Of a stretch of 64,000 nucleotides of DNA, positions 6,361 through 58,968 are shown in pieces. How positions within the stretch are numbered: the first letter of the stretch is position 1; the number at the start of each line of letters is the position of its first letter. A model generated the notes under the pieces. That model was given only the letters and a program-made list of their open reading frames with translations, made no database searches and was not told where the DNA came from. Both the position numbers and the translations under genes were made by a program. The DNA is from Chloroflexota bacterium (GTDB lineage: Bacteria > Chloroflexota > Dehalococcoidia > Dehalococcoidales > UBA2162): assembly GCA_043804635.1 (NCBI GenBank), contig JAZDIU010000079.1:1125-65124 (forward strand). Direction: 5' to 3'.

Positions 6361-6485
6361 GCCTCCTGGCAGTGGCATATTTTCCACAAGGGGGTGTCCC
6401 CTCAGTATCGTCTGCGCTGGGGCGTTTCACTTCCGTGTTCGGGATGGGAACGGGTGGTACCACCTCGCTCTAACCACCAGGAGGC
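6361..6485 (-). rRNA. rrf: 5S ribosomal RNA
   Basis: The minus strand reads GCCTCCTGGTGG...CCACCCGTTCCCATCCCGAACACGGAAGTGAAACGCCCCAGCGCAGACGATACTG...CCAGGAGGC. This shows the hallmark CCGAACACGGAAGTGAAAC loop-B/helix-III region and a 9-bp terminal helix (GCCUCCUGG/CCAGGAGGC). Confidence 0.85.
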
Positions 6486-24072: not shown

Positions 24073-24145
24073 GCCAGCGTAGCTCAGTTGGTAGAGCAGC
24101 GCTTTCGTAAAGCGCGGGTCGGGGGTTCGAGTCCTCTCGCTGGCT
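24073..24145 (+). tRNA. tRNA-Thr (anticodon CGU)
   Basis: Cloverleaf built by hand: acceptor GCCAGCG/CGCTGGC, D arm AGCTCAGTTGGTAGAGC, anticodon stem GCGCT/AGCGC with loop TTCGTAA, T loop TTCGAGT. CCA is not encoded. Confidence 0.85.
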
Positions 24146-24170
24146 CTCTTACTTTTTAAAAGTCCTAAAA

Positions 24171-25154: not shown

Positions 25155-26288
25155 TTATGGAAATAAGCTATTCAAGCTTATTTCCATCTCCGACTTGCTG
25201 GCAAATTCACCGACCATCTTTTCCCGAATAATGCCGTTTTTATCAATCAGAAAATTTGTCGGCGTGGCTGTAATGTCATACTGCTTTCTGACCTGTCCAT
25301 CGACATCCAATAGGACCGGGAAGGAGTAGTTATTGGCATTCATAAAATTAGTTAAATTAAGAGCGGTTTCATTGTTACCGACGCCAATCAAATCAACGGT
25401 AAGGACTACCAAACCCTTTTCCCGCCAAGTATCGTATGCTTCCTGTATCAGAGGCCTTTCCGCCCGGCAATGGGGACACCAGGTGACCCAGAAATTGAGT
25501 AATATCGGTTTGCCCCGAAAGCTGCTTAGAGAAACCGTTTCGCCCGCCAGGTTTTTTAGCTGAAAATCGGGCGCCGAATCACCTACATTAATACCTGTAG
25601 TAGCATTTGAGGAGATAGGGGTATGAGCACCGACCAAAGTGTCAAGTGCCTTAAGAGCACTATCGTAATCCGGAGGATTGGTAATTTCTTTGACATATTC
25701 TAAATATTTGATAGTATCGTCTTTGCCGACAATGAAAATAGCCCGGGTATCCAAACGATACTCTTTGATAAGGACGCCATAAGCTATACCGAAAGAAGCG
25801 TCACGGTAATCGGAGAGGACATTTGACTGGCTGATATTCCGGGCGCCACAATACCGTGCTTGAGCAAAAGGCAGGTCCATACTTACCGTGTAGAAGACGA
25901 CATCTTTATACTGGTTTGCCTCCTGCTCGAATTTTTGCGTCTGAAGGTCGCAGACGGGCGTATCCAGAGAAGGCACGACACTGATGAACCTGACTTTGTT
26001 CGGGCTATCCGATAGTTTTACCTCTTTAGCTTCAGGCATCGAATCGACCAGTTCAACAGGGGCTACTAGCTTGAAGTCCGGAGCTTTTTGCCCGACTTTA
26101 AGCTCGGGACCCACCAGAGTTACCGCTTTTCCCTTGAGAGTCACTGCACCTTGCCTCTCGATTACCTGATTGGTATTAGTACTAGAAACACAAGAAGTCA
26201 TAAGAGAAATGAGCAGGGTGGCGACTATTACTATTACGGCATTCCTATTGGCTAAAGCTCTTTGCGGAATTGAAATAAACTTATGCAT
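25155..26288 (-). CDS. Exported fusion protein: thiol peroxidase (Tpx) domain plus TlpA/ResA-like thioredoxin-fold domain
   Basis: Signal/lipobox LMTSC. Tpx motifs SVVPSLDTPVCDLQTQKF and FAQARYCGA. C-terminal NFWVTWCPHCRAERP (CXXC). Confidence 0.8.
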   Translation of the reverse strand: MHKFISIPQRALANRNAVIVIVATLLISLMTSCVSSTNTNQVIERQGAVTLKGKAVTLVGPELKVGQKAPDFKLVAPVELVDSMPEAKEVKLSDSPNKVRFISVVPSLDTPVCDLQTQKFEQEANQYKDVVFYTVSMDLPFAQARYCGARNISQSNVLSDYRDASFGIAYGVLIKEYRLDTRAIFIVGKDDTIKYLEYVKEITNPPDYDSALKALDTLVGAHTPISSNATTGINVGDSAPDFQLKNLAGETVSLSSFRGKPILLNFWVTWCPHCRAERPLIQEAYDTWREKGLVVLTVDLIGVGNNETALNLTNFMNANNYSFPVLLDVDGQVRKQYDITATPTNFLIDKNGIIREKMVGEFASKSEMEISLNSLFP

Positions 26289-28245: not shown

Positions 28246-30714
28246 ATGATGAGACCTGAAAAGTTTACCGAACAGGCACAAGAGGCACTGGCTATGTCTC
28301 AAGAAATAGTGCGCCAGTACCGCCACAGCCAATGGGATGTGGAGCATATCTTACTGGCTCTGCTCCAGCAAGAAAAAGGTCTGGTCAGCGATATTTTAAA
28401 AGAACTGGGCAGCGAGGTGGAGTCGGTAAGACAGCAGGTGAGAGCGGCACTCGAGAGAAGTCCGAAACTTGCTTACGAAACGCCCCAGATTTATGCTACT
28501 CCACGGGTCGCGCAGGTCTTACAAGCAGCAGCGGCCGAGGCTGACAGGCTAAAAGATGAATTTACGGGCACAGAACATCTGCTGATTGCCATTACGAGCG
28601 AGGGGAAAGGTGAGGCGTCGGCGATTCTAAAACGATTCGATATCAATCAGGAAAAAGTATTCCAGGCTTTGCAGAAGCTTCGCGGCGGACACCGGGTGAC
28701 TGATGCCCGGGCTGAAAGCAAATACCGCTCGCTGGAAAAATACGGACGCGATTTCACCGAAATGGCGCGCCAAGGAAAGCTCGACCCTGTAATCGGACGT
28801 GAAGAGGAAATCAAACGGGTAATACAGATACTTACCCGGCGTACTAAAAATAATCCGGTTATCGTCGGAGAATCCGGAGTAGGCAAGACTGCTATTGCCG
28901 AGGGACTAGCTCAGAAGATTGCGGCTGATGACGTGCCCGATTCACTAAAAGGGCGTCGGGTCATTGCTCTGGATATGGGTGCCTTGGTGGCCGGAAGTAA
29001 GTTCAGAGGCGAGTTCGAGGAACGACTCAAAGCAGTAATGGACGAGGTCCGTCAGGCAAAGGGTGAAGTGATATTGTTCATCGACGAGATTCATACCCTG
29101 GTTGGCGCCGGTGCCGCTGAAGGAGCTATCGATGCTAGTAATATGCTCAAGCCAGCTTTAGCCCACGGTGAAATGCAGTGCGTTGGCGCGACTACATTAG
29201 ACGAATACCGCAAATTCATTGAGAAAGATAAAGCCCTGGAGCGGCGTTTACAGCCCGTATTTGTCACGGAGCCTACGGTTGAGGCAACTATCGAGATGCT
29301 TAAAGGTCTTCGCCCCAGGTACGAAGCACACCACAAGATTAAGATTAGTGACGAAGCTCTCGAAGCGGCGGCTAAACTATCCCAGCGCTATATTTCGGAC
29401 AGGCACTTGCCCGATAAGGCAATCGACCTGATTGACGAGGCCGCCAGCCGTTTGCGTCTTGAGACAGAAAGCGCCCCGCCGGAGGTCAAGTCTTTAGAGC
29501 AGCGTCTCAAACAACTAACAGACGAGGAAGAAGCCGTTTCACAGCGGCAAGATTATAAGGAAGTAGCCCGGCTAAAGACGGAAAGGGCACGACTGGAACA
29601 GGAATACAATAAAGCTAAGAGCGAATGGCATGAGCGAGAGAAAATTTCTAATATAGTCGATGAAGAAGCCATCGCTGAGCTTATTTCTAAGTGGACGGGG
29701 ATTCCGGTTTCCCAGATGCTCGAGGGTGAGGCTCAAAAGCTGGTCGATATGGAAGAGCGAATCCACGAGAGACTGATTAACCAGGAAGAAGCAGTTAAAG
29801 CGATATCTGAAGCTATCCGCAGAGGTCGTGCTGGTCTTAAAGACCCGAGACGGCCTATCGGAAGTTTTATGTTCCTGGGTCCGACCGGCGTCGGTAAGAC
29901 CGAGCTTGCCCGCACTCTCGCATGGTTCCTGTTTAACGACGAAAATGCAATGGTGCGTCTGGATATGTCCGAATACCAGGAGCGGCATACCGTATCCCGC
30001 TTGGTCGGTGCTCCGCCGGGCTATATCGGCTTTGAAGAAGGTGGGCAGCTTACCGAAGCAGTGAGGCGCCGCCCATACCGAGTGATATTACTCGACGAGA
30101 TTGAAAAGGCTCACCCGGACGTCTTTAATATGCTGCTCCAAATTCTAGACGACGGACGGTTGACCGACGGACACGGCAGAACGGTTGACTTTAAGAATAC
30201 TATAGTTATTATGACCAGTAATGCCGGCGTAGAACTTATCCGGCGTGAGACGCGGATGGGTTTTGCTCCAGCCAAGGACGAAGCCAAAGCTCAGAAGGGA
30301 AGATACGAAGAACTGAGAGATAAAGTAATGGCTGAAGTGAGGAAGTCATTCCGTCCTGAGTTTCTGAACCGGCTGGACGATATCATCGTTTTCCATGAGC
30401 TGACCGAGCCTCAACTAAGGCAGATTGTCGACCTTATAGTTAACGACGTGGAGAAGCGTCTGGCTGAGCTAAAACTGAAACTCAAAGTAACCGAAGCGGC
30501 TAAATCATGGCTCGCTAAAACAGGTTTCGACCCGGTATACGGAGCGAGACCACTGCGGCGGGCAGTCGAACGTTATATAGAAAATCCGCTATCGACCAGC
30601 GTTCTGCGTGGTGAATACAAGGAAGGCGACACTATAACCGTCGACCTGGCTCAAGATACTTTGACGTTCTCGGTAAAAGCACAGGGGAAGCGCAAAAATC
30701 CTTCATCGAGTTAA
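28246..30714 (+). CDS. Second ClpC/ClpB-family AAA+ unfoldase (short middle domain and MGF tripeptide, therefore ClpC-like rather than ClpB)
   Basis: 822 aa. Walker A GESGVGKT and GPTGVGKT, a middle domain of only about 65 aa, [10 protein letters not shown] loop, and a canonical C-terminus with no insertion. Confidence 0.85.
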
Positions 30715-35165: not shown

Positions 35166-36095
35166 ATGACGGTAAAAACTTTTCGAGAGACACTTAAAGC
35201 AGGCCGTTTTATAGTTACCGCCGAGGTGGGGTCGATAAAGGGTTCGGACACCACCCGAATGATAGAGAATATCGGGTTGCTCTATGACAAAGTGCACGCC
35301 CTGAATGCAACCGATAACAAAAGCTCCGTGATGCGCTTTCCTTCTCTCGGGACTTGCCTTCTGGTTAAAGACCTTGGCGGAGAGCCGATACTGGATGTGG
35401 TTTGCCGCGACCGAAACCGTCTGGCAATTCAGGCCGACCTCCTTTTTGCCTGGTCCCGGGGCATTACTAATGTCCTATGCCTTACCGGCGACTCGATTGA
35501 ATTCGGCGATGATAAACAAGCCAAACCGGTCTTCGACCTTGATTGCTCGCAACTTATCAGCCTCGTAAAAGCACTGAACTCCGGCAAGGATATGGCGGGT
35601 AATGAACTGACCGGCGGTACAGATTTCTGTATCGGTGTAACGGCAACATCTAAGCTTGATGAACCCCAGCAAGCTAAACTCCAGAAAAAACTACAAGAGG
35701 GCATAGACTTCATCCTGATGCAAGCAGCTTATGATATTGACGAACTCAAACGGCTGATGGCTTTCGTCAGGAAGTCGGATGGGAAGGTGAAAGTTATTGT
35801 CGGCATTATGCCGCTAGTCAGTGTAGCGATGGGCAATTATATGAATTCTAATGTGCCCGGTATTTTTGTTCCTCGTCAGATACTCGAAAAGATGGCTGAA
35901 GCCCCGAGGGGCAAAGCTATCTCCACCGGAATAGAGCTGGCGATGAAAATGATAAAACAATTAAAGGAAGAGAAAATCTGTGACGGCGTTCACATTATGT
36001 TCCCCGGCCACGAGGAACGTATTCCTGAAATAATCGAGGCCGCAGGATTATCGGAAAGGGAAGTCACTAGTGGAGACAAGAAAGTCGCTGCCTAA
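35166..36095 (+). CDS. Methylenetetrahydrofolate reductase-like protein (MetF paralog without an adjacent MetV)
   Basis: 309 aa. Alignable by eye along its length with the MetF at 43091 (FIVTAEVG/FVITAEAG, VCRDRNRLAIQADLL/TCRDRNRIALQSDLL, CLTGD/ALTGD). Confidence 0.8.
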   Translation: MTVKTFRETLKAGRFIVTAEVGSIKGSDTTRMIENIGLLYDKVHALNATDNKSSVMRFPSLGTCLLVKDLGGEPILDVVCRDRNRLAIQADLLFAWSRGITNVLCLTGDSIEFGDDKQAKPVFDLDCSQLISLVKALNSGKDMAGNELTGGTDFCIGVTATSKLDEPQQAKLQKKLQEGIDFILMQAAYDIDELKRLMAFVRKSDGKVKVIVGIMPLVSVAMGNYMNSNVPGIFVPRQILEKMAEAPRGKAISTGIELAMKMIKQLKEEKICDGVHIMFPGHEERIPEIIEAAGLSEREVTSGDKKVAA

Positions 36096-36096
36096 A

Positions 36097-36666
36097 ATGA
36101 GGAATATTCAAAATGTTGCTGTATCGGGACCGGTTTCACATTCACAAATACAAGAACTGAGCGGAGAGAAAATCTCCACCTGTTTCCAATGCGAAAAATG
36201 CACCAACGGCTGTCCGTTGACCTTTGCGATGGATATTCTTCCCCATCGCGTTATGCACTCCATTCAGCTAGGGTTAGCTGACGAAGTCCTCAATAGCGAT
36301 ACTATCTGGGTCTGTGCTTCCTGCGAAACCTGCACCGCCCGCTGTCCTAATGATATCGATATCGCCCACGTTATGGATACGCTCAGACAAATGTCTACTG
36401 AGAGAGGTGTGAAGGCTTCTCAGAAGCAAGCTCCGGTTTTCCACAATGTGTTTCTTTCGAGTATAAAAAGATTCGGGCGTCTTCACGAAGCAACGATGGC
36501 TCTTGAATATGCCCTCAAGAGTGAAGGAGTTAAAGGCGTCCGTAAACAGTCCGGGCTGGGTCTGGAAATGATGCGTAAGGGTAAGATTCGACTTATGCCT
36601 AACTTAGGGGGAGGCAATCGGGTCAAAGACGTCTTCCGCAGGGCGGAGAGGAAGAAGCAACGATGA
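36097..36666 (+). CDS. hdrC: Heterodisulfide reductase subunit C-like (2x[4Fe-4S])
   Basis: CFQCEKCTNGCP and CASCETCTARCP. Start trimmed to ATG 36097, just after the metF' stop. Confidence 0.85.
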   Translation: MRNIQNVAVSGPVSHSQIQELSGEKISTCFQCEKCTNGCPLTFAMDILPHRVMHSIQLGLADEVLNSDTIWVCASCETCTARCPNDIDIAHVMDTLRQMSTERGVKASQKQAPVFHNVFLSSIKRFGRLHEATMALEYALKSEGVKGVRKQSGLGLEMMRKGKIRLMPNLGGGNRVKDVFRRAERKKQR

Positions 36667-37511
36667 AAGTTTCATATTATCCAGGATGTTCTTTAGAAGG
36701 CACTGCTAAAGAGTATGACGAGTCTCTTGAGGCAGTTACCGGCGCTCTCGGTATAGAATTAGAAGAACTGCCTGACTGGACTTGCTGCGGGGCGTCATCG
36801 GCTCACATCACCAATGATGAATTGGCGGTTTCCCTAGCGGTAAGGAACCTGTTGATTGCCGATAAGATAGGACAGGACGTCCTCGTTCCCTGTGCCGCCT
36901 GCTATCAGAGGTTAAAGAATGCCGAAAAAGAACTCAAGTCAGGGAATCCGGGCGAAGGAGTCAAATACTCCGGGAAGATTCGCATAAAGCACAGCGCCGA
37001 TTTTATATGGGAAGAGTGTGGAGAAAAGGCAATAAAAGCTAAGGCTAAGAAATCGTTAGCCGGGTTGCATCCGGTGTGTTACTACGGTTGTCTGACCGTC
37101 CGACCCCCTAAAGTAACCGATGCCAGCAATCCGGAAGACCCGCAGTCTATGGACGAGATAATGAAAAGTCTGGATGCTAACGTTAAGGACTGGTCGTATA
37201 AGACTGACTGCTGCGGGGGGAATCTGATGTTGACCCACCCCGAACTGGCGAAGAAACTCGTCAAAAAACTTTTCGATATGGCTCTGGAAGCCGAAGCGGA
37301 CTGCATTGTGGTCGGCTGTCCTTTATGCCATTCTAATCTCGATGCGAGGCAGAAGGAACTGCTTCAGGATAACGGAAGTAAATATAACATTCCGATTTAT
37401 TATTTCACAGAACTTATGGGACTGGCTTTCGAAGACAAGTCGGCTGAAAAGTGGTTAAACCGGCATCTCACGGAAGCGAAGTCTTTGCTCAAGCAAAAGG
37501 GACTCCTTTAG
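36663..37511 (+). CDS. hdrB: Heterodisulfide reductase subunit B-like (two CCG domains)
   Basis: DWTCCGA and TDCCGG motifs. ATGA overlap with hdrC. Confidence 0.85.
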   Translation: MKVSYYPGCSLEGTAKEYDESLEAVTGALGIELEELPDWTCCGASSAHITNDELAVSLAVRNLLIADKIGQDVLVPCAACYQRLKNAEKELKSGNPGEGVKYSGKIRIKHSADFIWEECGEKAIKAKAKKSLAGLHPVCYYGCLTVRPPKVTDASNPEDPQSMDEIMKSLDANVKDWSYKTDCCGGNLMLTHPELAKKLVKKLFDMALEAEADCIVVGCPLCHSNLDARQKELLQDNGSKYNIPIYYFTELMGLAFEDKSAEKWLNRHLTEAKSLLKQKGLL

Positions 37512-37523
37512 AGAGGAACGACG

Positions 37524-40500
37524 ATGAGTAATAGCAACGGTAAGAAAAAAGTCGGGGCAGTAATGGTGGTCGGTGGCGGCATCACCGGCATGCAGTCGGC
37601 TCTTGACTTAGCCAACTCCGGCTTCAAAGTATATCTGGTGGAGAAGTCCACTTCAATCGGGGGCAGAATGTCCCAGCTAGATAAGACCTTCCCGACTAAT
37701 GACTGTTCGATGTGTATGATTTCACCAAAGCTCATCGAGGTAGCCAAACATCGTAATATCGAGCTTATCACCAATGCCGAAGTGGAAGCGCTGGAGGGTG
37801 AGGAAGGTAATTTCAAAGTCAAAGTCCTCAAAAAACCCCGATACATCGATGTAATAAAATGCAGCGGGTGCGGTGACTGCGTGCAGGCTTGCCCGGTAGA
37901 CCTGCTCAACGAGTTCGAACAGGGATTGAGCCAGCGGAAAGCGACCTATAAGCGCTATCCCCAGGCAATACCCGGAGCCTTTGCCATAAGCAAGGGAGCC
38001 AGACCCCCCTGCAAAATTACCTGCCCGGCGGGATGTAACGGACAGGGATATATTGCTTTAAGTTCCAAAGGAAAGTATGTCGAAGCCCTGAACCACATCA
38101 AACAGTGGATACCTTTACCGGCGGTATTGGGCAGGATTTGTCACCATCCCTGCGAACAGGAATGTAACCGCGGGGAAATAGACGAACCGCTGGGTATCGC
38201 TCCAATAAAAAGATTTATTGCCGATATCGTGCGTCAGAAGCGGAAAGAAGGCAGTATTCCGCCGGAAGAAAAACCGGCAATCGAACCGGCAAAGCCGAAA
38301 GTGGCAGTGGTCGGTTCCGGACCTTCCGGTCTCGCCTGTGCCTACGACCTGGCAAAGCATGGTTATCCGGTAACGATTTGCGAAGCTGCGTCTCAACCCG
38401 GCGGCCAGCTTCAATCAGCTATCCCTAAATACCGCTTACCGAAGGATGTTTTGGCGGCGGATATCAAGGATATCACTGATTTGGGTATAGAGCTTAAGCT
38501 GAATACTCCGATTAATGACAAGCAGTCTTTGAACGACCTCAAAACCCAGGGATATAAGGCAATTTACGTAGCTATTGGTGCCCAGAAAAGCCGCGGTCTT
38601 CCTATCCCGGGTGTAGACCTTCCGGGAGTGCTCCTAGCTCTGGACTTTCTCAGAAACGTTAATGAAGATAAGGAAGTAAAGCTTGGAAAGAAAGTGGCGG
38701 TAATTGGCGGCGGCAATGTGGCAATGGATGTTGCCCGATCGCTCCGGCGCCTCGGTATTTCCGAAGTAACCGCCATTTGTCTGGAATCCAGAAAGGAAAT
38801 GCCCGCCCATCCCTGGGAAATAGAAGAAGCGGAAGAGGAAGGGGTCGTCATCAATAACTCCTGGGGTCCCACGGAAATAGTCGGCAAGGATGGCAAGGTT
38901 TCCGGAGTTTCATTTAAGAAATGCACCGCCGTATTCGATAAAGATAGACGATTCAATCCCACCTACGACGCCAATGTTACCACTACGGTTGATTGCGATA
39001 ACGTAATAATTGCCATCGGCCAGGCTACCGACCTGAGTGTCCTGTCTAAAGATACCAAGGTCAAAACTACTCCCGGGGGATGGCTAATCGTCGACCCGGT
39101 AACGCTTGCCACAGGTGAAGCGGGAGTGTTCGCCGGTGGTGACGGTGTTTCCGGACCTAAATCGGCGGTCGAAGCCATCGCTCACGGGCACGAAGCAGCT
39201 ATATCAATCGAGCGTTATTTGAGCGGTCTCGACCTGAAACAGGGCCGGGAGAAAACGAAGGATGAGCCGGCACCAGTCCCTGAAGGAAAACACGCCCGGA
39301 AGAAGCGAATATCTATTAACACTATCCCGATGGAGAGAAGAGTCTCCAGTTTCGATGAAATGACTCTGACTTACACCGAAGCGGAGGCGAAAGCCGAAGC
39401 GGAACGGTGTCTTGACTGCGGACTTTGCAGTGAGTGTCTGCAGTGCGTGGCGGTCTGCCAGGCGAAGGCGATCGACCATACTCAGAAGGCAGAACACATC
39501 GAAATCGGAGTAGGCTCTGTAGTCCTGGCGCCGGGCTTCGACCCATTCGATGCCACTTTAAAGGGTGAATATGGCTACGGGCGTATGAAAAACGTAGTCA
39601 CCAGCCTTGAGTTCGAGCGCATCCTTTCAGCATCCGGACCATTCCAGGGTCAGGTGAAGCGTCCTTCGGACGGTAAGCATCCGGTTAAGATTGGCTGGAT
39701 TCAGTGCGTCGGCTCCCGTGATGTAGGCTGCGGGAAAGACTATTGCTCTTCGGTCTGCTGTATGTATGCCACCAAGGAGGCGATTATTGCGCGAGAGCAC
39801 GAGAACACCATTCAGCCGACCATTTTCTATAACGATATCCGGGCTTTCGGCAAAGGCTTCGAGCGGTATTACGAATCGGCTAAAAACCGGTTCGGCGTCC
39901 GCTATATCAACAGCATACCTTCGATGGTGAAGGAATTACAGAAGACCCATAACCTGCTCCTGGAATATACCGATGATGCCGGCAAGAAAGTCCAGGAAGA
40001 GTTCGATATGGTCGTCCTTTCGGTTGGTATGGTGCCCTCAGCCGGCACCAAAGAATTAGCGGAAAAACTCGGCGTTAACCTGGACAGGTTCGGGTTCTGT
40101 GTTTCCGAGGAGATGCAGCCCAATGTGACTTCACGTCCGGGCGTCTATGTTGCCGGCGCTTTTACCGCCCCGATAGATATTCCAGAATCGGTGATGAGTG
40201 CCAGCGGGGCGGCCTGTTTGGCTTCCCAGACAGTCCACGAGTCACGGGGAACTTTAATAACCGAAAAAACGTGGCCGCCGGAAAAAGATGTAACCGGAGA
40301 GGAGCCCAGAGTCGGCGTGTTTATCTGCCGCTGTGGTGCTAATATCGCCCGGGTAGTCGATGTTCCGGCCGTCGTTGAATATGCTAAGACATTGCCGACC
40401 GTGGTTCACGCTGAGGAAAACCTTTATACCTGCTCTACCGATACGCAGGATAAGATAATCAAAGCTATCAAGGAAGGAAATTTGAACCGTATCGTGGTGG

Positions 40501-41963
40501 CTTCCTGCAGTCCGCGGACTCACGAACCGCTATTCCAGGATACGGTGCAGGAAAGCGGTTTGAACCGCTACCTTTTCGAGATGGCTAATATCCGCGACCA
40601 GTGCTCCTGGGTGCACGCCACTTTTATGCCGCAGTCGACGAAAAAAGCCAAGGGCTTGGTCCGTATGGCAGTAGCCCGCGCGACTACTCTTCTGCCGCTT
40701 CACCAATCTCGTGCTGAAGTAACACGCCGGGCTTTGATAGTTGGAGGCGGATTAGCCGGACTGACCGCCGCTCAAGCGGTAGCGGCACAGGGATTCGAAG
40801 CGGTGCTGGTGGAAAAGGAAAAGGAACTGGGCGGCAATCTGAAAAAGATATATTACACCGAACACGATGCCAACCCTCAATCTCTGCTTTCCACACTGGT
40901 AAGGCAGGTGGAATTAGACCCGATGATAAAAGTGTACAAAGGAGCTGAGGTTAAGAAACTTTCTGGCTACCTCGGCAATTACGTCACTGAGATTACTACC
41001 AACCAGGGAAATACGGAAAGCATCAAGCACGGCGTGGTGATTATCGCTACCGGCGGTGCTGAATATAAACCGACGGAATATCTTTACGGTAAGTCGCCCA
41101 GTATCTTGACCCAGCTCGAACTCGAAAAGAAGCTGGCTAACAAGGCTGTAAAAGATATGAAGTCGGTAGTAATGATTCAATGCGTCGGCTCGCGCGAACC
41201 GGAGCACGAGTATTGCAGCCGTGTCTGCTGCAGCCAGGCAGTCAATAATGCCATCAGGCTGAAAGAACTAGACCCGGCAATGGATGTCACCATTCTCTAC
41301 CGCGATATCCGGACTTACGGCATGCACGAACTGCAATACCGGAAAGCGCGGGAGATGGGTGTGACCTTCATTCACTTCGATGCTGAGAAGAAACCCGAGG
41401 TTACGTTGGAGAGCGGCAAGCTGGGTGTTAAAGTAATGGATAAGGCTCTGGGTAGAGAAATTTCACTCAAGCCCGACCTGCTGGTATTGGGTGCCGCCAT
41501 TCGGCCGCAATCCGATGCCAATGATTTTGCCAGCCGGCTAAAACTGCCGTTGACCCAGGATGGCTTTGTTATGGAAGCCCATATGAAACTAAGACCGTTA
41601 GACCTGGTTAATGAAGGAATGTATCTCTGCGGTCTGGCTCATTCGCCGAAGACTATCTCGGAATCGATTATTCAAGCAAGAGGAGCCGTATCTCGGGCAT
41701 TGACAGTGCTGTCTCAACCCTATCTTATGGTCGGCGGTATCGTGTCCGTGGTCGACCCGGAGAAATGTGCGGCCTGTCTCACCTGTGTCCGCTCCTGCCC
41801 TTATGACGTGCCGCAAATAAACGAGGAAGGTGTAGCCTATATCGAAGCCGCTGCCTGTCAGGGCTGCGGTATCTGTGCCAGTGTATGCCCGCGCAAAGCG
41901 ATTACGCTGCAGCACTATTCCGATAAGCAAGTTACAGCTAAGACGGCTGTGCTAGTGGATTGA
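37524..41963 (+). CDS. hdrA: Giant HdrA-like flavoprotein (1479 aa): an HdrA module interrupted by a GltD/NfnB-like NAD(P)H-FAD module, followed by a second HdrA-like module
   Basis: HdrA N-terminus (VVGGGITGMQSALDLA, TNDCSMCM, CSGCGDCVQACP). Residues about 160-570 resemble the glutamate-synthase small subunit (CPAGCN...ICHHPCEQECNR, VVGSGPSGLACA, VIGGGNVAMDVA, FAGGD). HdrA core follows (IQCVGSRD...YCSSVCCMYATKEA). A second module from about residue 1070 (IVGGGLAGLTAA, IQCVGSRE...YCSRVCCSQA) ends in 2x[4Fe-4S]. Confidence 0.85.
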   Translation: MSNSNGKKKVGAVMVVGGGITGMQSALDLANSGFKVYLVEKSTSIGGRMSQLDKTFPTNDCSMCMISPKLIEVAKHRNIELITNAEVEALEGEEGNFKVKVLKKPRYIDVIKCSGCGDCVQACPVDLLNEFEQGLSQRKATYKRYPQAIPGAFAISKGARPPCKITCPAGCNGQGYIALSSKGKYVEALNHIKQWIPLPAVLGRICHHPCEQECNRGEIDEPLGIAPIKRFIADIVRQKRKEGSIPPEEKPAIEPAKPKVAVVGSGPSGLACAYDLAKHGYPVTICEAASQPGGQLQSAIPKYRLPKDVLAADIKDITDLGIELKLNTPINDKQSLNDLKTQGYKAIYVAIGAQKSRGLPIPGVDLPGVLLALDFLRNVNEDKEVKLGKKVAVIGGGNVAMDVARSLRRLGISEVTAICLESRKEMPAHPWEIEEAEEEGVVINNSWGPTEIVGKDGKVSGVSFKKCTAVFDKDRRFNPTYDANVTTTVDCDNVIIAIGQATDLSVLSKDTKVKTTPGGWLIVDPVTLATGEAGVFAGGDGVSGPKSAVEAIAHGHEAAISIERYLSGLDLKQGREKTKDEPAPVPEGKHARKKRISINTIPMERRVSSFDEMTLTYTEAEAKAEAERCLDCGLCSECLQCVAVCQAKAIDHTQKAEHIEIGVGSVVLAPGFDPFDATLKGEYGYGRMKNVVTSLEFERILSASGPFQGQVKRPSDGKHPVKIGWIQCVGSRDVGCGKDYCSSVCCMYATKEAIIAREHENTIQPTIFYNDIRAFGKGFERYYESAKNRFGVRYINSIPSMVKELQKTHNLLLEYTDDAGKKVQEEFDMVVLSVGMVPSAGTKELAEKLGVNLDRFGFCVSEEMQPNVTSRPGVYVAGAFTAPIDIPESVMSASGAACLASQTVHESRGTLITEKTWPPEKDVTGEEPRVGVFICRCGANIARVVDVPAVVEYAKTLPTVVHAEENLYTCSTDTQDKIIKAIKEGNLNRIVVASCSPRTHEPLFQDTVQESGLNRYLFEMANIRDQCSWVHATFMPQSTKKAKGLVRMAVARATTLLPLHQSRAEVTRRALIVGGGLAGLTAAQAVAAQGFEAVLVEKEKELGGNLKKIYYTEHDANPQSLLSTLVRQVELDPMIKVYKGAEVKKLSGYLGNYVTEITTNQGNTESIKHGVVIIATGGAEYKPTEYLYGKSPSILTQLELEKKLANKAVKDMKSVVMIQCVGSREPEHEYCSRVCCSQAVNNAIRLKELDPAMDVTILYRDIRTYGMHELQYRKAREMGVTFIHFDAEKKPEVTLESGKLGVKVMDKALGREISLKPDLLVLGAAIRPQSDANDFASRLKLPLTQDGFVMEAHMKLRPLDLVNEGMYLCGLAHSPKTISESIIQARGAVSRALTVLSQPYLMVGGIVSVVDPEKCAACLTCVRSCPYDVPQINEEGVAYIEAAACQGCGICASVCPRKAITLQHYSDKQVTAKTAVLVD

Positions 41964-41983
41964 AAATCTAGGAAAGGAACAAG

Positions 41984-42415
41984 ATGGTAGAGAGTTACGA
42001 ACCCAGTGTTGTGGCTTTTTGCTGCCATTACTGCGCCTACTCAGCGGCAGACCTCGCCGGCTCGATGCGATTAGAGTATCCGCCCAACGTCCGCATCATC
42101 AAGCTGATGTGTACCGGAAAGCTGGATACCCTGCATCTGCTGAGCGCTTTTGAAGACGGCGCCGATGCGGCGTTCGTTGCCGGCTGAGAGGAAGGCAATT
42201 GCCATTTCCTGGAAGGAAATCTGAGAGCGAAGAAAAAGGTACAGCAGGCTAAGGCGCTGCTGAAAGAAGTAGGGTTTGAGCCGGAGCGGGTAGAAATGTT
42301 CAACATCGGTGCTTCGGATGCAGTTCTGTTTGCCAAAGCTGCCGATGAAATGACGGCTAGAGCTAGGAAGCTGGGCCCTAACCGTCTGAAAAAAGCCAGA
42401 GGTGAAGTCAAATGA
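41984..42415 (+). CDS. mvhD: MvhD (methyl-viologen-reducing hydrogenase delta subunit-like) with in-frame TGA at 42185-42187 read as selenocysteine
   Basis: The track shows only 41984..42187 (67 aa). The same frame stays open for 75 more codons to TGA 42413-42415. The joined protein reads ...GADAAFVAG[U]EEGNCHFLEGN..., matching the MvhD G-C-x-x-G-x-C-H-[YF] cluster motif. Its stop overlaps the metV ATG (ATGA). Confidence 0.7.
42204..42220 (+). promoter_or_regulatory. Candidate bacterial SECIS hairpin
   Basis: ATTTCCT-GGA-AGGAAAT: a perfect 7-bp stem. The apical loop begins with G and starts 24 nt after the UGA. Confidence 0.35.
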
Positions 42416-43101
42416 TAATAGCCGAAAGAAAACAGTTTGCGCCATTGTGGGATAGTATAAAAGATTTCAAGAGTGTGCTGGTGCTGGGCTGCGGCACCTG
42501 CGTCAGCGTTTGCCAGGCAGGCGGTGAGAAAGAGGTAGGGCTACTTGCTACCGAACTCAGGATGAAGAGCAAGCTCGAAGGCAAAGAAATCAAAATCGGG
42601 GAAATGACCATAGAGCGCCAGTGCGACCGGGAGTATTTCGAAGCTATTAAGGACAGAGTCGGAGAATACGATGTTGTTCTTTCGATGGCTTGCGGTGCCG
42701 GAGTCCAATTTTCCGCTGAGGTACTCGAGCCGATGAAGGTAGTGCCGGCACTGAACACACGGTTTATCGGGGTGAATGTGGAGGAGGGGAGCTGGGCGGA
42801 GAAATGCCGGGCGTGCGGGAACTGCATACTGGCTGATTACGGCGGTATCTGTCCGATGACTATTTGCGCCAAAAGCCTGGTGAGCGGACCCTGCGGAGGC
42901 AGTAAAAACGGAAAATGCGAAGCCGGTCAGGAAAAGGATTGTGCCTGGGTTCTGATTTACACTCGACTTAAGAAGCAAAATAAACTGGATAATTTACGCC
43001 GCACGGCTGCATTCAAAGACTACACCACTCAGACTCACCCAGGACGCTATGTCAATCCGGCTTACCAGAAACCGGAGATGGAGGTTAAGAATGCCAAATA
43101 G
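42412..43101 (+). CDS. metV: MetV (MTHFR C-terminal-domain, Cys-rich small subunit)
   Basis: 229 aa. Cys clusters GCGTCVSVCQ and CRACGNC...CPMTICAK...GPCGG...GKCE, immediately upstream of metF. Confidence 0.75.
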   Translation: MIIAERKQFAPLWDSIKDFKSVLVLGCGTCVSVCQAGGEKEVGLLATELRMKSKLEGKEIKIGEMTIERQCDREYFEAIKDRVGEYDVVLSMACGAGVQFSAEVLEPMKVVPALNTRFIGVNVEEGSWAEKCRACGNCILADYGGICPMTICAKSLVSGPCGGSKNGKCEAGQEKDCAWVLIYTRLKKQNKLDNLRRTAAFKDYTTQTHPGRYVNPAYQKPEMEVKNAK

Positions 43102-43975
43102 CAATCTCAAGCAGGCATTTGAGTCCGGCAAATTTGTCATCACTGCCGAAGCAGGTCCCTTGAAAGGGACTTCGACTACGGAAATAGAAGAGGTAGCCCA
43201 CGCCCTGAAAGGGAAAGTGGATGCCATTAACGTTACCGATCAGCAAAGTTCGGTAATGAGGTTGGGTTCGCTGGTTACCTGCCATTTGTTGAAAGATATG
43301 GGGGTTGAGCCTATCTTTCAGTTGACCTGCCGTGACAGAAACCGCATTGCTTTGCAATCAGACTTGCTGAGTGCCTGGGTACTGGGCGTGGTGAACTGCG
43401 TAGCATTGACCGGCGATTTACCTTCATCCGGCGACCATCCTCAAGCTAAGCCGGTTTACGACCTCGATTCGGTGCAATTGCTGAGGGTTATCAAGGGACT
43501 GAACGATGGTAAGGATATGGTCGGAAACGAGTTGAAGGGAAAGCCCGATTTCTATGCCGGTGCGGTGGTGAACCCCGGAGCCGACACCGAGGCTTCCTAC
43601 GAACTTCAAATTATGAAGATGGAAAAGAAACTCGAAGCCGGAGCAAAGTTCTTCCAGACACAGGGTATTTTCGATGCCGAAGTCTTTGCTAAATTTATGA
43701 AGCGCGTCGAGCAGTATAAAGTCCCCATACTGGCGGGAGTGATACCTCTGAAATCAGCCGGTATGGCACGGTTTATGAATAAGAACGTCGCCGGCATCAA
43801 TGTCCCGGAGCCGATGATTGTCAAAATGAATAAGGCGGAAGATAAGACCAAGACCGGCATCGAGATTTGCGGAGAGCTGATTAAATCCCTGAAGGGTATG
43901 TGCCAGGGCGTGCATATTATGCCGATAGGCTGGGAGAAGAAGGTGCCGGAAATTCTGGCAGCGGCCGGTATGTAA
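43091..43975 (+). CDS. metF: Methylenetetrahydrofolate reductase
   Basis: The track ORF is trimmed to ATG 43091 (GGAGG SD), giving MPNSNLKQAFESGKFVITAE... Contains ...TCRDRNRIALQSDLLSAW..ALTGD... Confidence 0.85.
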   Translation: MPNSNLKQAFESGKFVITAEAGPLKGTSTTEIEEVAHALKGKVDAINVTDQQSSVMRLGSLVTCHLLKDMGVEPIFQLTCRDRNRIALQSDLLSAWVLGVVNCVALTGDLPSSGDHPQAKPVYDLDSVQLLRVIKGLNDGKDMVGNELKGKPDFYAGAVVNPGADTEASYELQIMKMEKKLEAGAKFFQTQGIFDAEVFAKFMKRVEQYKVPILAGVIPLKSAGMARFMNKNVAGINVPEPMIVKMNKAEDKTKTGIEICGELIKSLKGMCQGVHIMPIGWEKKVPEILAAAGM

Positions 43976-55351: not shown

Positions 55352-56905
55352 TTGAGTAAACGTTTAGATAAAGTTAAGTTAGTAAAAGGGCGGCAGTGGG
55401 AGCGGCAGGACCCTATAGATAACATCGGGGTATCTACTTATGTTTTAATCAAGGATGCGATTCAAGAAGGAAGAAACGATCTGGCTAAAGATTTAGCCGA
55501 TTACGTTTACTTCTGGGAGACCAAGTTCGCCCGCGATACCAATTTCGACTTGATTGCGGGCTGGCCCGAATTTGTCAGAATCAACTACGGCGAGTATGCG
55601 GAAATCGAAGACCAGAGAGCGGCGATGATACAGACACGTATGTGGAAATTGCCGTTTACCGAAAAGCCTACCGTCCAGAAACGCGAGCAAAGCCCTTACG
55701 ATTACACTATGGGATACGGGTGGAGGATGTTGAAATACCACCGGATGGGGAAAAACGATGGAGCCGGCGGGTTTACTATCGAGGAATATCCAGACAGATA
55801 TGAGTTCGTCTGGGACCCGTGCTACAGCGGCGGGAGGCCGAGACGTGGCGACCCCGTTACCGGCACTCCGCCACGAACGAGTCCGCTCTATACCGGCAAT
55901 CAGGTACCACATCCCTGGTCGTGGGGGAAGACAGGAGTCCCCGGCTATTGTATGCACTGTGCCCTCATTCACAATATTATGGATGTCGAGCAGAGGGGAT
56001 ACTTGCAGTGGGCTTCGGGGTATCCCGACGACCCCTGGAAGCCCTGCACATACATCGCCTACAAAGATGTCGACTGGATTCCCGAGGAATACTATACACG
56101 AATTGGGAGAACTAAACCGAAGGTAACTTCGACCGCACCCAGACCAAAAGACGTGAACAAGCTAATCAGGGTGATACATTCGGACGAACTGGGACCGGAG
56201 TGGGTGCCGACGCTCACTATGCTGAAGAAAGCTATCGATGCCGGGAAAAAGAAGGAGGCTCTAAAGATTGTAGACCAGATGCGTGACGAAATGGGACGGA
56301 TCAGTATGCTTATCTGGAACTGGTCTTGGATGGAATTAATTATAGAGAAATATGGCTACAACGAGCTTTACCATGCTTTGAGGTCGATCCCCTGTTCATA
56401 CGCACTACCACCGGCTCCTGAGGAGCCAAGACCGACCAAAGCCGACATACCCAATGCCGAGGAACGGGCACGGAGAGGCGCGTTATGGGGCAGGTCCGAC
56501 CGAAGCGGTCCAAATGCCGATTGTTCGGTCAACATCATCGACGAGCCGGATAGAGTTGTAATGGAACTCGCTCCCTGCGGCAGCGGCGGACGAGGTCTGA
56601 TGACGATAGATACGCCCGGGATGGAGAGGGGACCTGTGACTGGAAACCCATGGAATTTCAAGACAACACCCGTAGCTCACCCTGTCGCCTGGAACAAGGT
56701 AGGAGTTCCCAATTATTGTGCCCGTTGCTGCGTCCATATGGAGATGGGGTCTTTATCGCGATACGGTTATCTTACCACAGTCATAGAGCGTCCGGAGAAT
56801 GCCACCGACCCGAATTGCCGGTGGTTCTTCTACAGGGACGTGGACGATATTCCCGAGAAATACTACACAAGGATTGGGGCTAAGAAACCGGCGAGGCAGA
56901 AATAG
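55352..56905 (+). CDS. Unknown-family protein, paralog A (517 aa): internally duplicated, 2 x 4 invariant Cys
   Basis: TTG start after AAGGAGGG. Begins MSKRLDKVKLVKG... Motifs are DPCYSGGR...YCMHC...PCTYIAYKDVDWIPEEYYTRIG and APCGSGGR...YCARCC...NCRWFFYRDVDDIPEKYYTRIG. Confidence 0.8.
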   Translation: MSKRLDKVKLVKGRQWERQDPIDNIGVSTYVLIKDAIQEGRNDLAKDLADYVYFWETKFARDTNFDLIAGWPEFVRINYGEYAEIEDQRAAMIQTRMWKLPFTEKPTVQKREQSPYDYTMGYGWRMLKYHRMGKNDGAGGFTIEEYPDRYEFVWDPCYSGGRPRRGDPVTGTPPRTSPLYTGNQVPHPWSWGKTGVPGYCMHCALIHNIMDVEQRGYLQWASGYPDDPWKPCTYIAYKDVDWIPEEYYTRIGRTKPKVTSTAPRPKDVNKLIRVIHSDELGPEWVPTLTMLKKAIDAGKKKEALKIVDQMRDEMGRISMLIWNWSWMELIIEKYGYNELYHALRSIPCSYALPPAPEEPRPTKADIPNAEERARRGALWGRSDRSGPNADCSVNIIDEPDRVVMELAPCGSGGRGLMTIDTPGMERGPVTGNPWNFKTTPVAHPVAWNKVGVPNYCARCCVHMEMGSLSRYGYLTTVIERPENATDPNCRWFFYRDVDDIPEKYYTRIGAKKPARQK

Positions 56906-56997
56906 AAATTCGGAATTCGAATCCTTCGGCAAGCTCAGGACAGGTATTGAAATACGAAACAAATTCAAAACCACAGATCAAAAGTTAAAAAATGACT

Positions 56998-57073
56998 GGA
57001 TTCCGGCTTCCGCCGGAATGACAAAGATACCCACCTCCGCCACCGGACGGGCGGGTTAGAAACCCGCCCCTAC
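56998..57073. repeat. Cluster of REP-like palindromes between paralogs A and B
   Basis: ggattccggcttccgccggaatgac (56998-57022) and gggcgggtt-aga-aacccgccc (about 57049-57069). Confidence 0.6.
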
Positions 57074-57110
57074 GAAATCGGATTGGTCTCGCAATGGCAT
57101 TAGAAAAAGT

Positions 57111-57141
57111 TTGACAACGTTTAGCGTAGCGGGTGTATGAT
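57111..57141 (+). promoter_or_regulatory. Candidate promoter of paralog B (TTGACA, 19 nt spacer, TATGAT)
   Basis: Same geometry and flanking bases as the element at 55294-55324. Confidence 0.4.
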
Positions 57142-57236
57142 TAAGGCGATTGTAGGCACATACGTAAGTAATACGCACGATAGCCGATGAATGCTCGGAG
57201 ATATTTAAAATTATAGAAGGAGGTAAGGAATAAATA

Positions 57237-58901
57237 ATGAGCAAACGGCTGGATAAGGTCAAATTAGTCAAGGGGTTCAAGTGGGAAAGACAGGACGACC
57301 TGGATAATCAGGGAGTCCCGACCTACGACCTCGTCAAGGATGCGATAAAAGAGGGCAAGACCGACATAGCTAAAGACCTGCTGGATTATTTGTACTTCTG
57401 GGAGATTAAGTTCGTCCGCGACTCAAACATCGACATCGTTGGGGGGTTCCCGCAGTTCTGGATGACCAGATATGGCGAGGAGCAGCTCTTCGATGTTTAC
57501 TGGGAATTGCTCTGCCGGCAACGCGGCGTGGCTTCCTGGCCTGTCCCACCGGTTGGACTAAAACACCGCCAGATGACCGGTTTCGACTACGCTATGGAGC
57601 ACGCTATCTGGATGGTTAGACCCCACCGGATGGGCCGATTAGATGGAACAGGCGGATTCGTCCTAGAAGAATACGAAGACAGGTATGAAGTGGTCTGGGA
57701 CCCATGCTATACAGGCGGCCGGACCAGACGGGGCGACCCAATTGCCAGTATGCCGCCGCACACGGCGCCACCATTTAACTATGCGACGAACAAAGTCCCA
57801 CACCCCTGGACGTGGGGCAAGACTGGAGTAACCGGTTACTGCATACACTGCACGTTACTGCACGAGCTAATGGACGTAGCACAGACGGATGGATATTTAG
57901 GACAGTGGGTCAGCGGCTATCCAGAAAATCCCTGGGACCCCTGCCGCTATATTACCTATAAGAATGTCGACTGGATTCCGGAGAAATATTATACGAGGCT
58001 CGGCAAAACCAAACCCAAGCCAAAGGCACCAATCCCCAAGTTCAAGGATGTAACCAAACCTATTAAAGTTACCCATTCACACGAACTGGGACCGTTCTGG
58101 AAAGTTACCGATGGTGAGCACTGGATGAACTTCGTCCCCAGAATAAAGAAAGCACTGGACGAGGGCAAAAAAGCGAAAGCCTTAAAGCTTGTCGATATGC
58201 TGCGGGCAGAGACAGCTCTCTGGCACGCCCGATACCCGATCAGATGGAACTGGTCGTGGATAGACCTGGTTATCGAAAGATTCGGTTACGACGAGGTACA
58301 TTACGCTCTAAGGTCGCTTTATTCCCGAATGGAACCACCGCTGGCGCCGGACGAGCCGAAGCTAACCAAAGACCAGATTCCAAGTGCCGAAGTAAGAGCC
58401 AAGAAGGCAGCCGCCTGGGGCAGAGGCGACCTCAGCGGACCCAACTCCGAAGGCTCGGTCAAAATCATCGACGAACCAGACCGGATTGTAATGGAGCTTA
58501 ATCCCTGCGGCAGCGTGGGACGAAACCTGCTGCCAATGGATAAAGTGGACGACCTCACCGCCGAGATAATCAAAGAACTGGTGCTGCCCGCAGGACCCGC
58601 TTACTCAGGGCCAAGAGGGCCGTTAACGGAAGCACCCTTCAACTACAAGGTAACCACCAAAGCCCATCCAATAGGCTGGGGCAAGGTGGGCATACCCAAC
58701 CTCTGCACACGGTGCTGCGTCCAGTTCGAGATGGACGCGGTAGCCCGCACCGGATACCTCACCACCGTTATCGAGCGGCCAGAGAATGCCACCGACCCAA
58801 ATTGCCGCTGGTTCTTCTACAAGAACTTGGACGATATCCCGGAAAAGTACTACACCAGAATCGGGATGAAGAAACCAGCCCGCCAGGCAAAAAAGAAATA
58901 A
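57237..58901 (+). CDS. Unknown-family protein, paralog B (554 aa)
   Basis: MSKRLDKVKLVKGFKWERQD...; DPCYTGGR...YCIHC...PCRYITYKNVDWIPEKYYTRLG; NPCGSVGR...LCTRCC...NCRWFFYKNLDDIPEKYYTRIG. Confidence 0.8.
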   Translation: MSKRLDKVKLVKGFKWERQDDLDNQGVPTYDLVKDAIKEGKTDIAKDLLDYLYFWEIKFVRDSNIDIVGGFPQFWMTRYGEEQLFDVYWELLCRQRGVASWPVPPVGLKHRQMTGFDYAMEHAIWMVRPHRMGRLDGTGGFVLEEYEDRYEVVWDPCYTGGRTRRGDPIASMPPHTAPPFNYATNKVPHPWTWGKTGVTGYCIHCTLLHELMDVAQTDGYLGQWVSGYPENPWDPCRYITYKNVDWIPEKYYTRLGKTKPKPKAPIPKFKDVTKPIKVTHSHELGPFWKVTDGEHWMNFVPRIKKALDEGKKAKALKLVDMLRAETALWHARYPIRWNWSWIDLVIERFGYDEVHYALRSLYSRMEPPLAPDEPKLTKDQIPSAEVRAKKAAAWGRGDLSGPNSEGSVKIIDEPDRIVMELNPCGSVGRNLLPMDKVDDLTAEIIKELVLPAGPAYSGPRGPLTEAPFNYKVTTKAHPIGWGKVGIPNLCTRCCVQFEMDAVARTGYLTTVIERPENATDPNCRWFFYKNLDDIPEKYYTRIGMKKPARQAKKK

Positions 58902-58908
58902 GGTTAAG

Positions 58909-58937
58909 ACGAGTCCTCGCAAAAAGCGAGGACTCGT
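58909..58937 (+). terminator. Hairpin plus T-rich tail between paralogs B and C
   Basis: acgagtcctcgc-aaaaa-gcgaggactcgt followed by TATTTAT. Confidence 0.55.
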
Positions 58938-58968
58938 TATTTATAAGCAATAAAAGAAGGAGGTGTAA

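Follow-up and report, generated by a model that had tools for sequence, protein, structure and literature searches.

The mvhD gene and its internal TGA

The DNA considered here is a 64-kb window, meaning the whole stretch of 64,000 nucleotides that was analyzed from contig JAZDIU010000079.1 of a Chloroflexota bacterium of the Dehalococcoidales (assembly GCA_043804635.1), and the subject is mvhD, a gene of the FlpD/MvhD family whose reading frame contains an internal TGA codon. An earlier account of the locus, made from the letters of the DNA without database searches and referred to below as the sequence-only reading, had proposed that this TGA specifies selenocysteine (Sec) and that a small hairpin just beyond it acts as a selenocysteine insertion sequence (SECIS). 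The elements of the gene are as follows.

41970-41979, + strand: Shine-Dalgarno-like sequence AGGAAAGGAA, read from the sequence, ending 4 nt upstream of the mvhD start codon
41984-42415, + strand: mvhD coding sequence, predicted to encode 143 amino acids including one selenocysteine at residue 68; stop codon TGA at 42413-42415; a single internal TGA in the frame translation
42185-42187, + strand: in-frame TGA, very probably read as selenocysteine (U68); a Cys column in the Cys-type relatives and a Sec column in the VhuD chain 9sfi_K
42194-42203, + strand: small helix GGC-AAUU-GCC, predicted by RNAfold and RNAalifold; role uncertain
42204-42220, + strand: putative SECIS hairpin, with 5' arm AUUUCCU (42204-42210), loop GGA (42211-42213), and 3' arm AGGAAAU (42214-42220)

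The gene begins with an ATG at 41984, and the open reading frame (ORF) as called is 67 amino acids long, ending ...GADAAFVAG ahead of the TGA at 42185-42187. Beyond this TGA the frame continues without a stop for 75 further codons, up to the TGA at 42413-42415, and this terminal stop overlaps the start codon of metV (ATG 42412) in the form ATGA. All of these coordinates had been given by the sequence-only reading and are confirmed, as is its joined reading of the product around the internal TGA, VAG-[TGA]-EEGNCHFLEGN. It was also right in finding no start codon near the 5' end of the extension, but it had placed the first ATG about 39 codons in, when this is actually the 37th codon (ATG 42296). 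No in-frame ATG, GTG, or TTG occurs in the 36 codons that follow the internal TGA, and nowhere 3' of it is there a start or ribosome-binding site comparable to that of mvhD itself.

The two halves belong to a single protein domain. The 67-residue half corresponds to positions 1-59 of the Pfam FlpD/MvhD profile (PF02662) and the 75-residue half to positions 62-123, while the joined product spans the complete profile (1-123 of 123; E = 5.7e-47; score 159 bits, cut-off 22.3) and is matched by MvhD chains in the PDB at E = 1e-37 to 3e-32. Chance is far from sufficient to explain the division of one Pfam domain by a TGA into two contiguous halves. The MvhD of the window has residues at five conserved Cys columns, namely C14, C17, C43, U68, and C73, and the cluster is a four-ligand [2Fe-2S] center; a literature search found no statement on the residue at the U68 column as a ligand of that cluster. 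U68 may be such a ligand, as the sequence-only reading had it, or a redox-active residue near the cluster.

The TGA column in relatives and in known selenoproteins

Relatives of the locus were gathered by scanning a single genome for each GTDB species, from which the best 80 loci were taken. TGA is found at the identical mvhD column in 20 of these 80 GTDB-representative loci, and TGC or TGT in the others. The 20 TGA-type loci come mostly from Dehalococcoidia, together with one from Zixibacteria, one from Chloroflexia, and one from an unclassified metagenome-assembled genome (MAG). The closest relative, L001, also has TGA at this position, and the original TGA-type set of 22 genes is made up of the window, L001, and the 20 genome loci. 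A search of metagenomes added 120 further TGA-type contigs; its pattern ended at the His codon (CAY) and left the hairpin unconstrained, because circularity had to be avoided. The nearest relatives are Dehalococcoidia/Dehalococcoidales MAGs.

Where the column is not TGA it is occupied by cysteine. This is the case in all 63 of the Cys-type DNA loci examined, and full-length relatives that are 71-87% identical have Cys at the column within the motif G-C-E-E-G-x-C-H-F, the exception being a protein with Trp, P0001, that is discussed below. The alignment agrees with the claim of the sequence-only reading that homologs carry G-C-x-x-G-x-C-H-[FY] and that the TGA falls on the first Cys of this motif. 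In the corresponding motif of the window, G-U-E-E-G-N-C-H-F, U68 would very probably replace the conserved Cys.

The column is also known as a site of selenocysteine. In the VhuD chain of Methanococcus maripaludis (9sfi_K, from the Hdr-Vhu-Fwd structure), two residues are given as X, and they align with residues 17 and 68 of the MvhD of the window. X is taken as Sec in the 9SFI file because X197 of the HdrA chain is the Sec197 named in PMC13518236, and the TGA of the window therefore sits on a Sec column of a structurally characterized homolog. PF02662 has been listed as a selenoprotein family with two Sec residues in archaea (PMC13188914), and four Sec-containing MvhDs have been reported from Desulfobacterium autotrophicum (PMC2702500). 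The X at the column in 9sfi_K and the four proteins of D. autotrophicum thus bear out what the sequence-only reading had stated, that such MvhD/VhuD homologs exist in methanococci and in some anaerobic bacteria.

The spread of the TGA bears on the possibility of a sequencing or assembly error in what is truly a TGC or TGT codon. One base change would suffice to give back the Cys codon, but over 140 independent assemblies, of genomes and of metagenomes, have the identical TGA, alongside a hairpin that is absent from Cys-type genes, and an error of this kind is extremely unlikely.

The exceptional protein, P0001, is the product of L001 510-944 (JGI contig Ga0566185_0227579) and is 87% identical to the window protein; it reads ...VAGWEEG... 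and ends ...SKW. The Trp is an artefact of the gene caller, because the DNA of L001 has TGA at this position and the true stop has also been rendered as W. Genetic code 4 was apparently used for calling this contig, a database artefact. The sequence-only reading had expected annotation pipelines to report a truncated gene; this is borne out only indirectly, in that the JGI call for the closest relative reads the TGA as Trp.

Translation beyond the internal TGA, and the code in use

Among the TGA-type genes, the half that lies 3' of the TGA has a ratio of nonsynonymous to synonymous differences (pN/pS) of 0.26, with pS at about 0.70, and for the window compared with L001 the downstream half gives a pN of 0.07 and a pS of 0.71. 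Since pN is low while pS is high, the downstream half is translated and under selection.

These values have to be set against the simplest account of the locus, in which the TGA is a true stop and mvhD either is a pseudogene or yields the 67-residue N-terminal piece on its own or else a pair of separate polypeptides. Mechanical ORF calling does end the gene at 67 amino acids, and no Sec machinery is seen in the 64-kb window. Against this, the 36 codons past the TGA offer neither an ATG, GTG, or TTG nor a ribosome-binding site, and the half that would be lost holds the invariant C73 and H74. The purifying selection on that half operates where synonymous sites are saturated, and the same TGA has been retained in the more than 140 independent assemblies at protein identities of 55-87%. 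A stop would, in addition, leave a hairpin that is specific to TGA-type genes unexplained. A conserved two-gene split at this position, the contrary state that the sequence-only reading had named, is likewise not what is found, as there is no restart codon and purifying selection acts on the downstream half. A true stop is accordingly very unlikely.

If the codon is read through, the residue inserted might be something other than selenocysteine. UGA could be decoded as Trp or Cys by a near-cognate tRNA, as Cys by a Cys-charging tRNA-Sec-like tRNA acting with a SelB-type factor, or by a reassigned code (table 4 or 25). The DNA cannot tell which residue is inserted, a Cys in this position would be compatible with function, and the JGI gene caller did give Trp for the orthologous TGA in P0001. 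Reassignment is excluded by the codon counts of the window: its 49 genes, with 17,883 codons, contain a single internal TGA, that of mvhD, while TGA ends 11 of the 49 genes and TGG codons number 187. The Trp of P0001, in which a real stop is also W, is an artefact, and no other full-length homolog has Trp at the column. The presence of a hairpin that fits the bacterial SECIS (bSECIS) model, together with the Sec column of a solved homolog, points instead to the canonical pathway, and read-through without selenocysteine is decidedly improbable.

The hairpin downstream of the TGA

The perfect 7-bp hairpin with a GGA loop at 42204-42220, to which the sequence-only reading had drawn attention, is exactly as it had been described. 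It lies 19 nt past the TGA, inside the codons for His-Phe-Leu-Glu-Gly-Asn, and the conserved 18-nt block of which it forms part occupies 42203-42220. Published constraints for bSECIS elements call for a loop of 3-9 nt with G within its first two positions, an upper stem of 4-16 bp, a distance from UGA to loop of 16-37 nt, and a minimum free energy (MFE) of -7.5 kcal/mol or lower (PMC13188914). The mvhD element falls within all of these, having a GGA loop, a 7-bp stem, a UGA-to-loop distance of 23 nt, and, over 41 nt, an energy of -9.0 kcal/mol, although it takes the adjacent mini-helix to reach the energy bound, the 7-bp hairpin by itself being at about -4.9 kcal/mol. The distance, which the sequence-only reading had judged to be SECIS-compatible, is inside the 16-37 nt range.

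The window contains 76 perfect 7-bp hairpins with loops of 3-9 nt, or about 1.2 per kb, which gives a probability of about 0.03 that one would fall at a SECIS-compatible distance by chance. Taken alone, from this window, the mvhD hairpin is weakly significant; its significance comes from the comparison with relatives and not from the window by itself.

The surroundings of the hairpin are less clear-cut. The small helix at 42194-42203 shows only G-C to G-U changes and is situated on codon-constrained bases. An alternative lower stem would pair alignment columns 10-17 with columns 39-45, corresponding in the window to 42194-42201 with 42223-42229, where 4 of the 7 pairs are possible. In the TGA-type subclass with 'LEG...HY...LNAR', this lower stem lengthens the hairpin and brings it to about -15 kcal/mol, and pair 12-43 is C-G in 87 sequences and U-A in 12. 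Being strong in that other subclass and weak in the window, the extended lower stem was not accepted as part of the window element and is left as uncertain.

Conservation and covariation among TGA-type genes

Across the 22 TGA-type genes, the 18 nt CATTTCCTGGAAGGAAAT are essentially invariant, in the midst of synonymous sites that are saturated (pS 0.70-0.80 in the flanks; the codon for Cys73 is evenly divided, with 11 TGC and 11 TGT). Averaged over codons +6 to +11, third-position entropy is 0.09 bits in these genes, the lowest of 118 six-codon windows, whereas the same codons in 60 Cys-type genes have 1.40 bits and rank 25th of 118. Pairing follows the same division. All 7 stem pairs are Watson-Crick in 126 of 143 TGA-type sequences and 6 of the 7 are in 16 more, as against 7 of 7 in just one of 63 Cys-type sequences.

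The hairpin exists in two main versions, CAT-TTC-CTG-GAA-GGA-AAT (His-Phe-Leu-Glu-Gly-Asn) and CAT-TAC-CTG-GAA-GGT-AAT (His-Tyr-Leu-Glu-Gly-Asn). In TGA-type genes the Phe codon TTC is accompanied by the Gly codon GGA in 71 of 71 cases, and the Tyr codon TAC by GGT in 71 of 71. This strict coupling means that whenever the 5' arm undergoes a nonsynonymous change, the 3' arm has a synonymous one by which pairing is regained. The Phe/Tyr and Gly codons are uncoupled in Cys-type genes. When the TGA-type sequences are reduced to 129 distinct ones, 98.9% of stem cells form pairs, U-A and A-U account for 67 and 61 sequences respectively at pair 23-33, and none of 500 shuffles attains these values. 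On a neighbor-joining tree, Fitch parsimony requires at least three independent switches between the Phe and Tyr versions, and two proteins of opposite version, L199 (Tyr/GGT) and L113 (Phe/GGA), differ at only 4.6% of their residues. The loop opens with G27, the third base of the Leu codon, and this G does not vary among the 131 aligned TGA-type sequences. The proposal of the sequence-only reading that the hairpin acts as a SECIS element is upheld by its conservation in TGA-type genes only, by its covariation, and by its fit to the published bSECIS constraints.

Three individual loci depart from the general pattern. The TGA-type gene at L115 3263-3322 is missing the hairpin from the usual place, where it reads CAT TAC CTG ACA GGC AAC. 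In L156 305-364, also TGA-type, a 1-nt deletion in the hairpin shifts the frame, and this sequence represents either a pseudogene or an assembly error. Conversely, L013 6484 (QIGA01000247.1, Chloroflexi MAG SZUA-161) is a Cys-type mvhD (TGC) with a full 7-bp SECIS-like hairpin, the sole case among 63, which suggests a recent Sec-to-Cys conversion or a pre-adapted state.

Probable decoding of the UGA as selenocysteine

Taken together, mvhD is one gene, whose UGA at 42185-42187 is very probably read as selenocysteine U68 by means of its own bacterial SECIS hairpin, as the sequence-only reading had proposed. In the mechanism that this implies, mvhD would be translated from 41984 and the ribosome would pause at the UGA. 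The hairpin, 19 nt downstream, would then recruit SelB carrying Sec-tRNA(Sec) to the paused ribosome. Selenocysteine would be inserted at residue 68, and translation would run on to 42415, coupled to metV through the ATGA. We infer both the incorporation of selenium at U68 and the presence of SelA, SelB, SelD, and tRNA-Sec in this genome. By homology, MvhD would act as a [2Fe-2S] adaptor that docks on HdrA and, within the methylene-tetrahydrofolate reductase complex, delivers electrons to this NAD(P)H-linked protein's flavin or takes them from it.

A number of observations weigh against decoding as selenocysteine. None of SelA, SelB, or SelD is found by Pfam among the approximately 48 ORFs of the 64-kb window, and ARAGORN detects no tRNA-Sec in the window and the related loci, in which it finds 16 ordinary tRNAs. 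A scan of 1.86 Mb of related loci for motifs of the machinery (the pyridoxal phosphate site of SelA, the N-terminus of SelD, and the G1 motif of SelB) returned spurious matches only. The HdrA partner encoded in the same operon uses Cys at a known Sec column. With respect to the RNA, the covariation is confined to one stem pair, with wobble or loop changes at a second, and the bSECIS energy value depends on the neighboring mini-helix, as described above. The 66-nt region 42185-42250 has an MFE no more stable than that of shuffled sequences (z = 0.54) and was not used as support, and a rival fold is present in the 60-nt context of the hairpin. Finally, an Rfam scan at gathering thresholds and a permissive scan of 42100-42320 gave chance matches to small nucleolar and long noncoding RNAs and no SECIS family.

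The capacity of this lineage for selenocysteine decoding is supported indirectly, through the SECIS signature and through literature at the level of the class. In BSepDB, MAGs of the Dehalococcoidia rank with the bacteria richest in selenoproteins, at 46-49 genes each, and this database covers species that possess the Sec pathway (both PMC13326102).

A more speculative extension concerns the conserved 18-nt block, CAU-U[U/A]C-CUG-GAA-GG[A/U]-AAU, which might represent a distinct, near-invariant class of SECIS tied to the peptide H-[FY]-L-E-G-N. Such a class would be carried along by Sec-type mvhD from one phylum to another (Dehalococcoidia, Chloroflexia, Zixibacteria, and others), and in some hosts it might be read by non-canonical decoding, through a SelB variant or a Cys-inserting tRNA-Sec-like tRNA. 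We regard this as improbable.

Other candidate selenoproteins were also sought. The column that corresponds to Sec197 of the M. maripaludis HdrA is Cys64 in the HdrA of the window (DCSMC), and it is Cys in 79 of the 79 HdrA genes of related loci. Because this column is Cys, MvhD would be the only selenoprotein of the operon. A scan of the window for TGA-joined ORF pairs gave no convincing second selenoprotein gene besides mvhD. Peroxiredoxin and thioredoxin folds are frequent selenoprotein families. One gene of this kind, at 25155-26288 on the - strand, encodes a 377-residue protein with two tandem AhpC/TSA-redoxin domains and has no in-frame TGA.

The hdrCBA-mvhD-metVF cluster and its surroundings

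The genes that lie around mvhD, with the matches on which their assignments rest, are as follows.

35166-36095, + strand: gene resembling methylenetetrahydrofolate reductase (MTHFR), upstream of hdrC; a weaker Pfam match (E = 2e-28)
36070-36666, + strand: hdrC; Pfam Fer4 dicluster domains
36663-37511, + strand: hdrB; Pfam CCG domains
37524-41963, + strand: hdrA, 1479 amino acids, the partner of MvhD; Pfam, and PDB sequence matches to HdrA, NfnA, and GltD
42412-43101, + strand: metV; Pfam DUF5981 (MTHFR C-terminal)
43049-43975, + strand: metF ORF; Pfam MTHFR (E = 1e-42)

The HdrA protein is a fusion, in which residues 13-157 are of the HdrA type, a NAD(P)H-FAD module like that of NfnB, GltD, and DPD follows at about residues 158-650, and the remainder is again HdrA. 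The gene order hdrCBA-mvhD-metVF is kept in most of the related loci, in Sec-type and Cys-type alike. Both metV and metF are translationally coupled to mvhD via the ATGA overlap. The listed metF ORF overlaps metV by 53 nt, and the real start of metF may therefore be the ATG at 43091. By homology, the cluster is presumed to encode a NAD(P)H-dependent, electron-bifurcating methylene-tetrahydrofolate reductase of the Moorella type. The hdr-mvhD-metVF cluster has been described for Moorella and for marine Chloroflexi, and marine Chloroflexi with two non-identical copies of metF have been reported (both PMC5736913). In the window, two genes of the MTHFR family flank the cluster, at 35166-36095 and 43049-43975, both on the + strand.

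The window has other features too. A solitary 5S rRNA gene lies at 6364-6481 on the - strand; this gene and a tRNA-Thr at 24073-24146 are all that the Rfam gathering scan of the 64 kb yields, with no 16S or 23S rRNA. Two genes for double-AAA+ chaperones of the ClpB/ClpC type occur within 25 kb, at 3590-6277 (- strand) and 28246-30714 (+ strand). At 55352-60567 on the + strand there are three successive large ORFs, of 517, 554, and 532 amino acids, with no Pfam match at E <= 1e-5.

Significance

The practical consequence of the TGA is in annotation. ORF callers end mvhD at 67 amino acids, and at least one public call for the closest relative reads the codon as Trp; with mvhD mis-called in this way, these Dehalococcoidia genomes seem to have a broken Hdr-MvhD-MetVF complex. 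Recognition of U68 restores a complete methylene-tetrahydrofolate reductase module of the Wood-Ljungdahl type, and it would mark the organism as dependent on selenium for a core enzyme of its energy metabolism. The comparative set also amounts to an unusually clean natural experiment on a bacterial SECIS, in which a change between Phe and Tyr is tied to the choice of Gly codon, and this coupling could serve as a simple DNA signature for Sec-type mvhD in metagenomes. Current understanding is unchanged, since MvhD/VhuD is a long-known selenoprotein family, bacterial Sec-containing MvhDs have been published, and the Dehalococcoidia are known to be rich in selenoproteins. What is added here is the correction of an annotation and a very clean case of SECIS covariation.

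Comparison with known systems

The closest structurally characterized counterpart is VhuD of M. maripaludis, M. voltae, and M. jannaschii (PDB 9SFI chain K), which belongs to the same Pfam family, PF02662, and is matched by phmmer at E = 7e-37 over residues 6-136. Of the two Sec residues in VhuD, one stands at the TGA column of the window, within a G-U-x-x-x-x-C motif, and the protein has the same role, that of a [2Fe-2S] adaptor docking on HdrA. VhuD differs in being archaeal, with a SECIS of the archaeal kind in the 3' untranslated region, whereas the hairpin of the window lies within the coding sequence. Its second Sec is at a CxxU column, where the MvhD of the window has Cys17. The source of electrons is also different, being a [NiFeSe] hydrogenase or Fdh in the case of VhuD, whereas the window has no adjacent hydrogenase genes and its HdrA carries a NAD(P)H module.

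Among bacteria, D. autotrophicum HRM2 has Sec-containing MvhDs (mvhD1, mvhD2, mvhD3, and mvhD5) that are encoded beside hdrA/hdrL genes, and selA, selB, selC, and selD are present in the organism (PMC2702500). It belongs to another phylum and its genes stand in another operon context (dsr, hydrogenase), the comparison being made irrespective of the position of Sec in its MvhDs. Its HdrA/HdrL partners are themselves selenoproteins, whereas the HdrA of the window is the Cys form. The cluster of marine Chloroflexi (PMC5736913) has the same genes and presumably the same function; the available portion of that report mentions no Sec-containing MvhD, whereas the form in the window is predicted to have Sec at residue 68.

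With regard to the RNA element, the window hairpin resembles the consensus bacterial SECIS of the bSECISearch model and the fdhF SECIS of Escherichia coli in being a stem-loop immediately 3' of the UGA and within the ORF. Its small loop starts with G, and its stem of 7 bp and spacing of 23 nt are inside the ranges of the model. The SECIS of E. coli fdhF has a GU-containing loop with a bulged U, from which the GGA triloop of the window differs. The window element departs from these in its short, A/U-rich stem, which on its own provides about -4.9 kcal/mol, and in matching no Rfam model. It is also unusual in its invariance, with 18 nt conserved across several phyla, an invariance that arises because the block overlaps a conserved protein motif.

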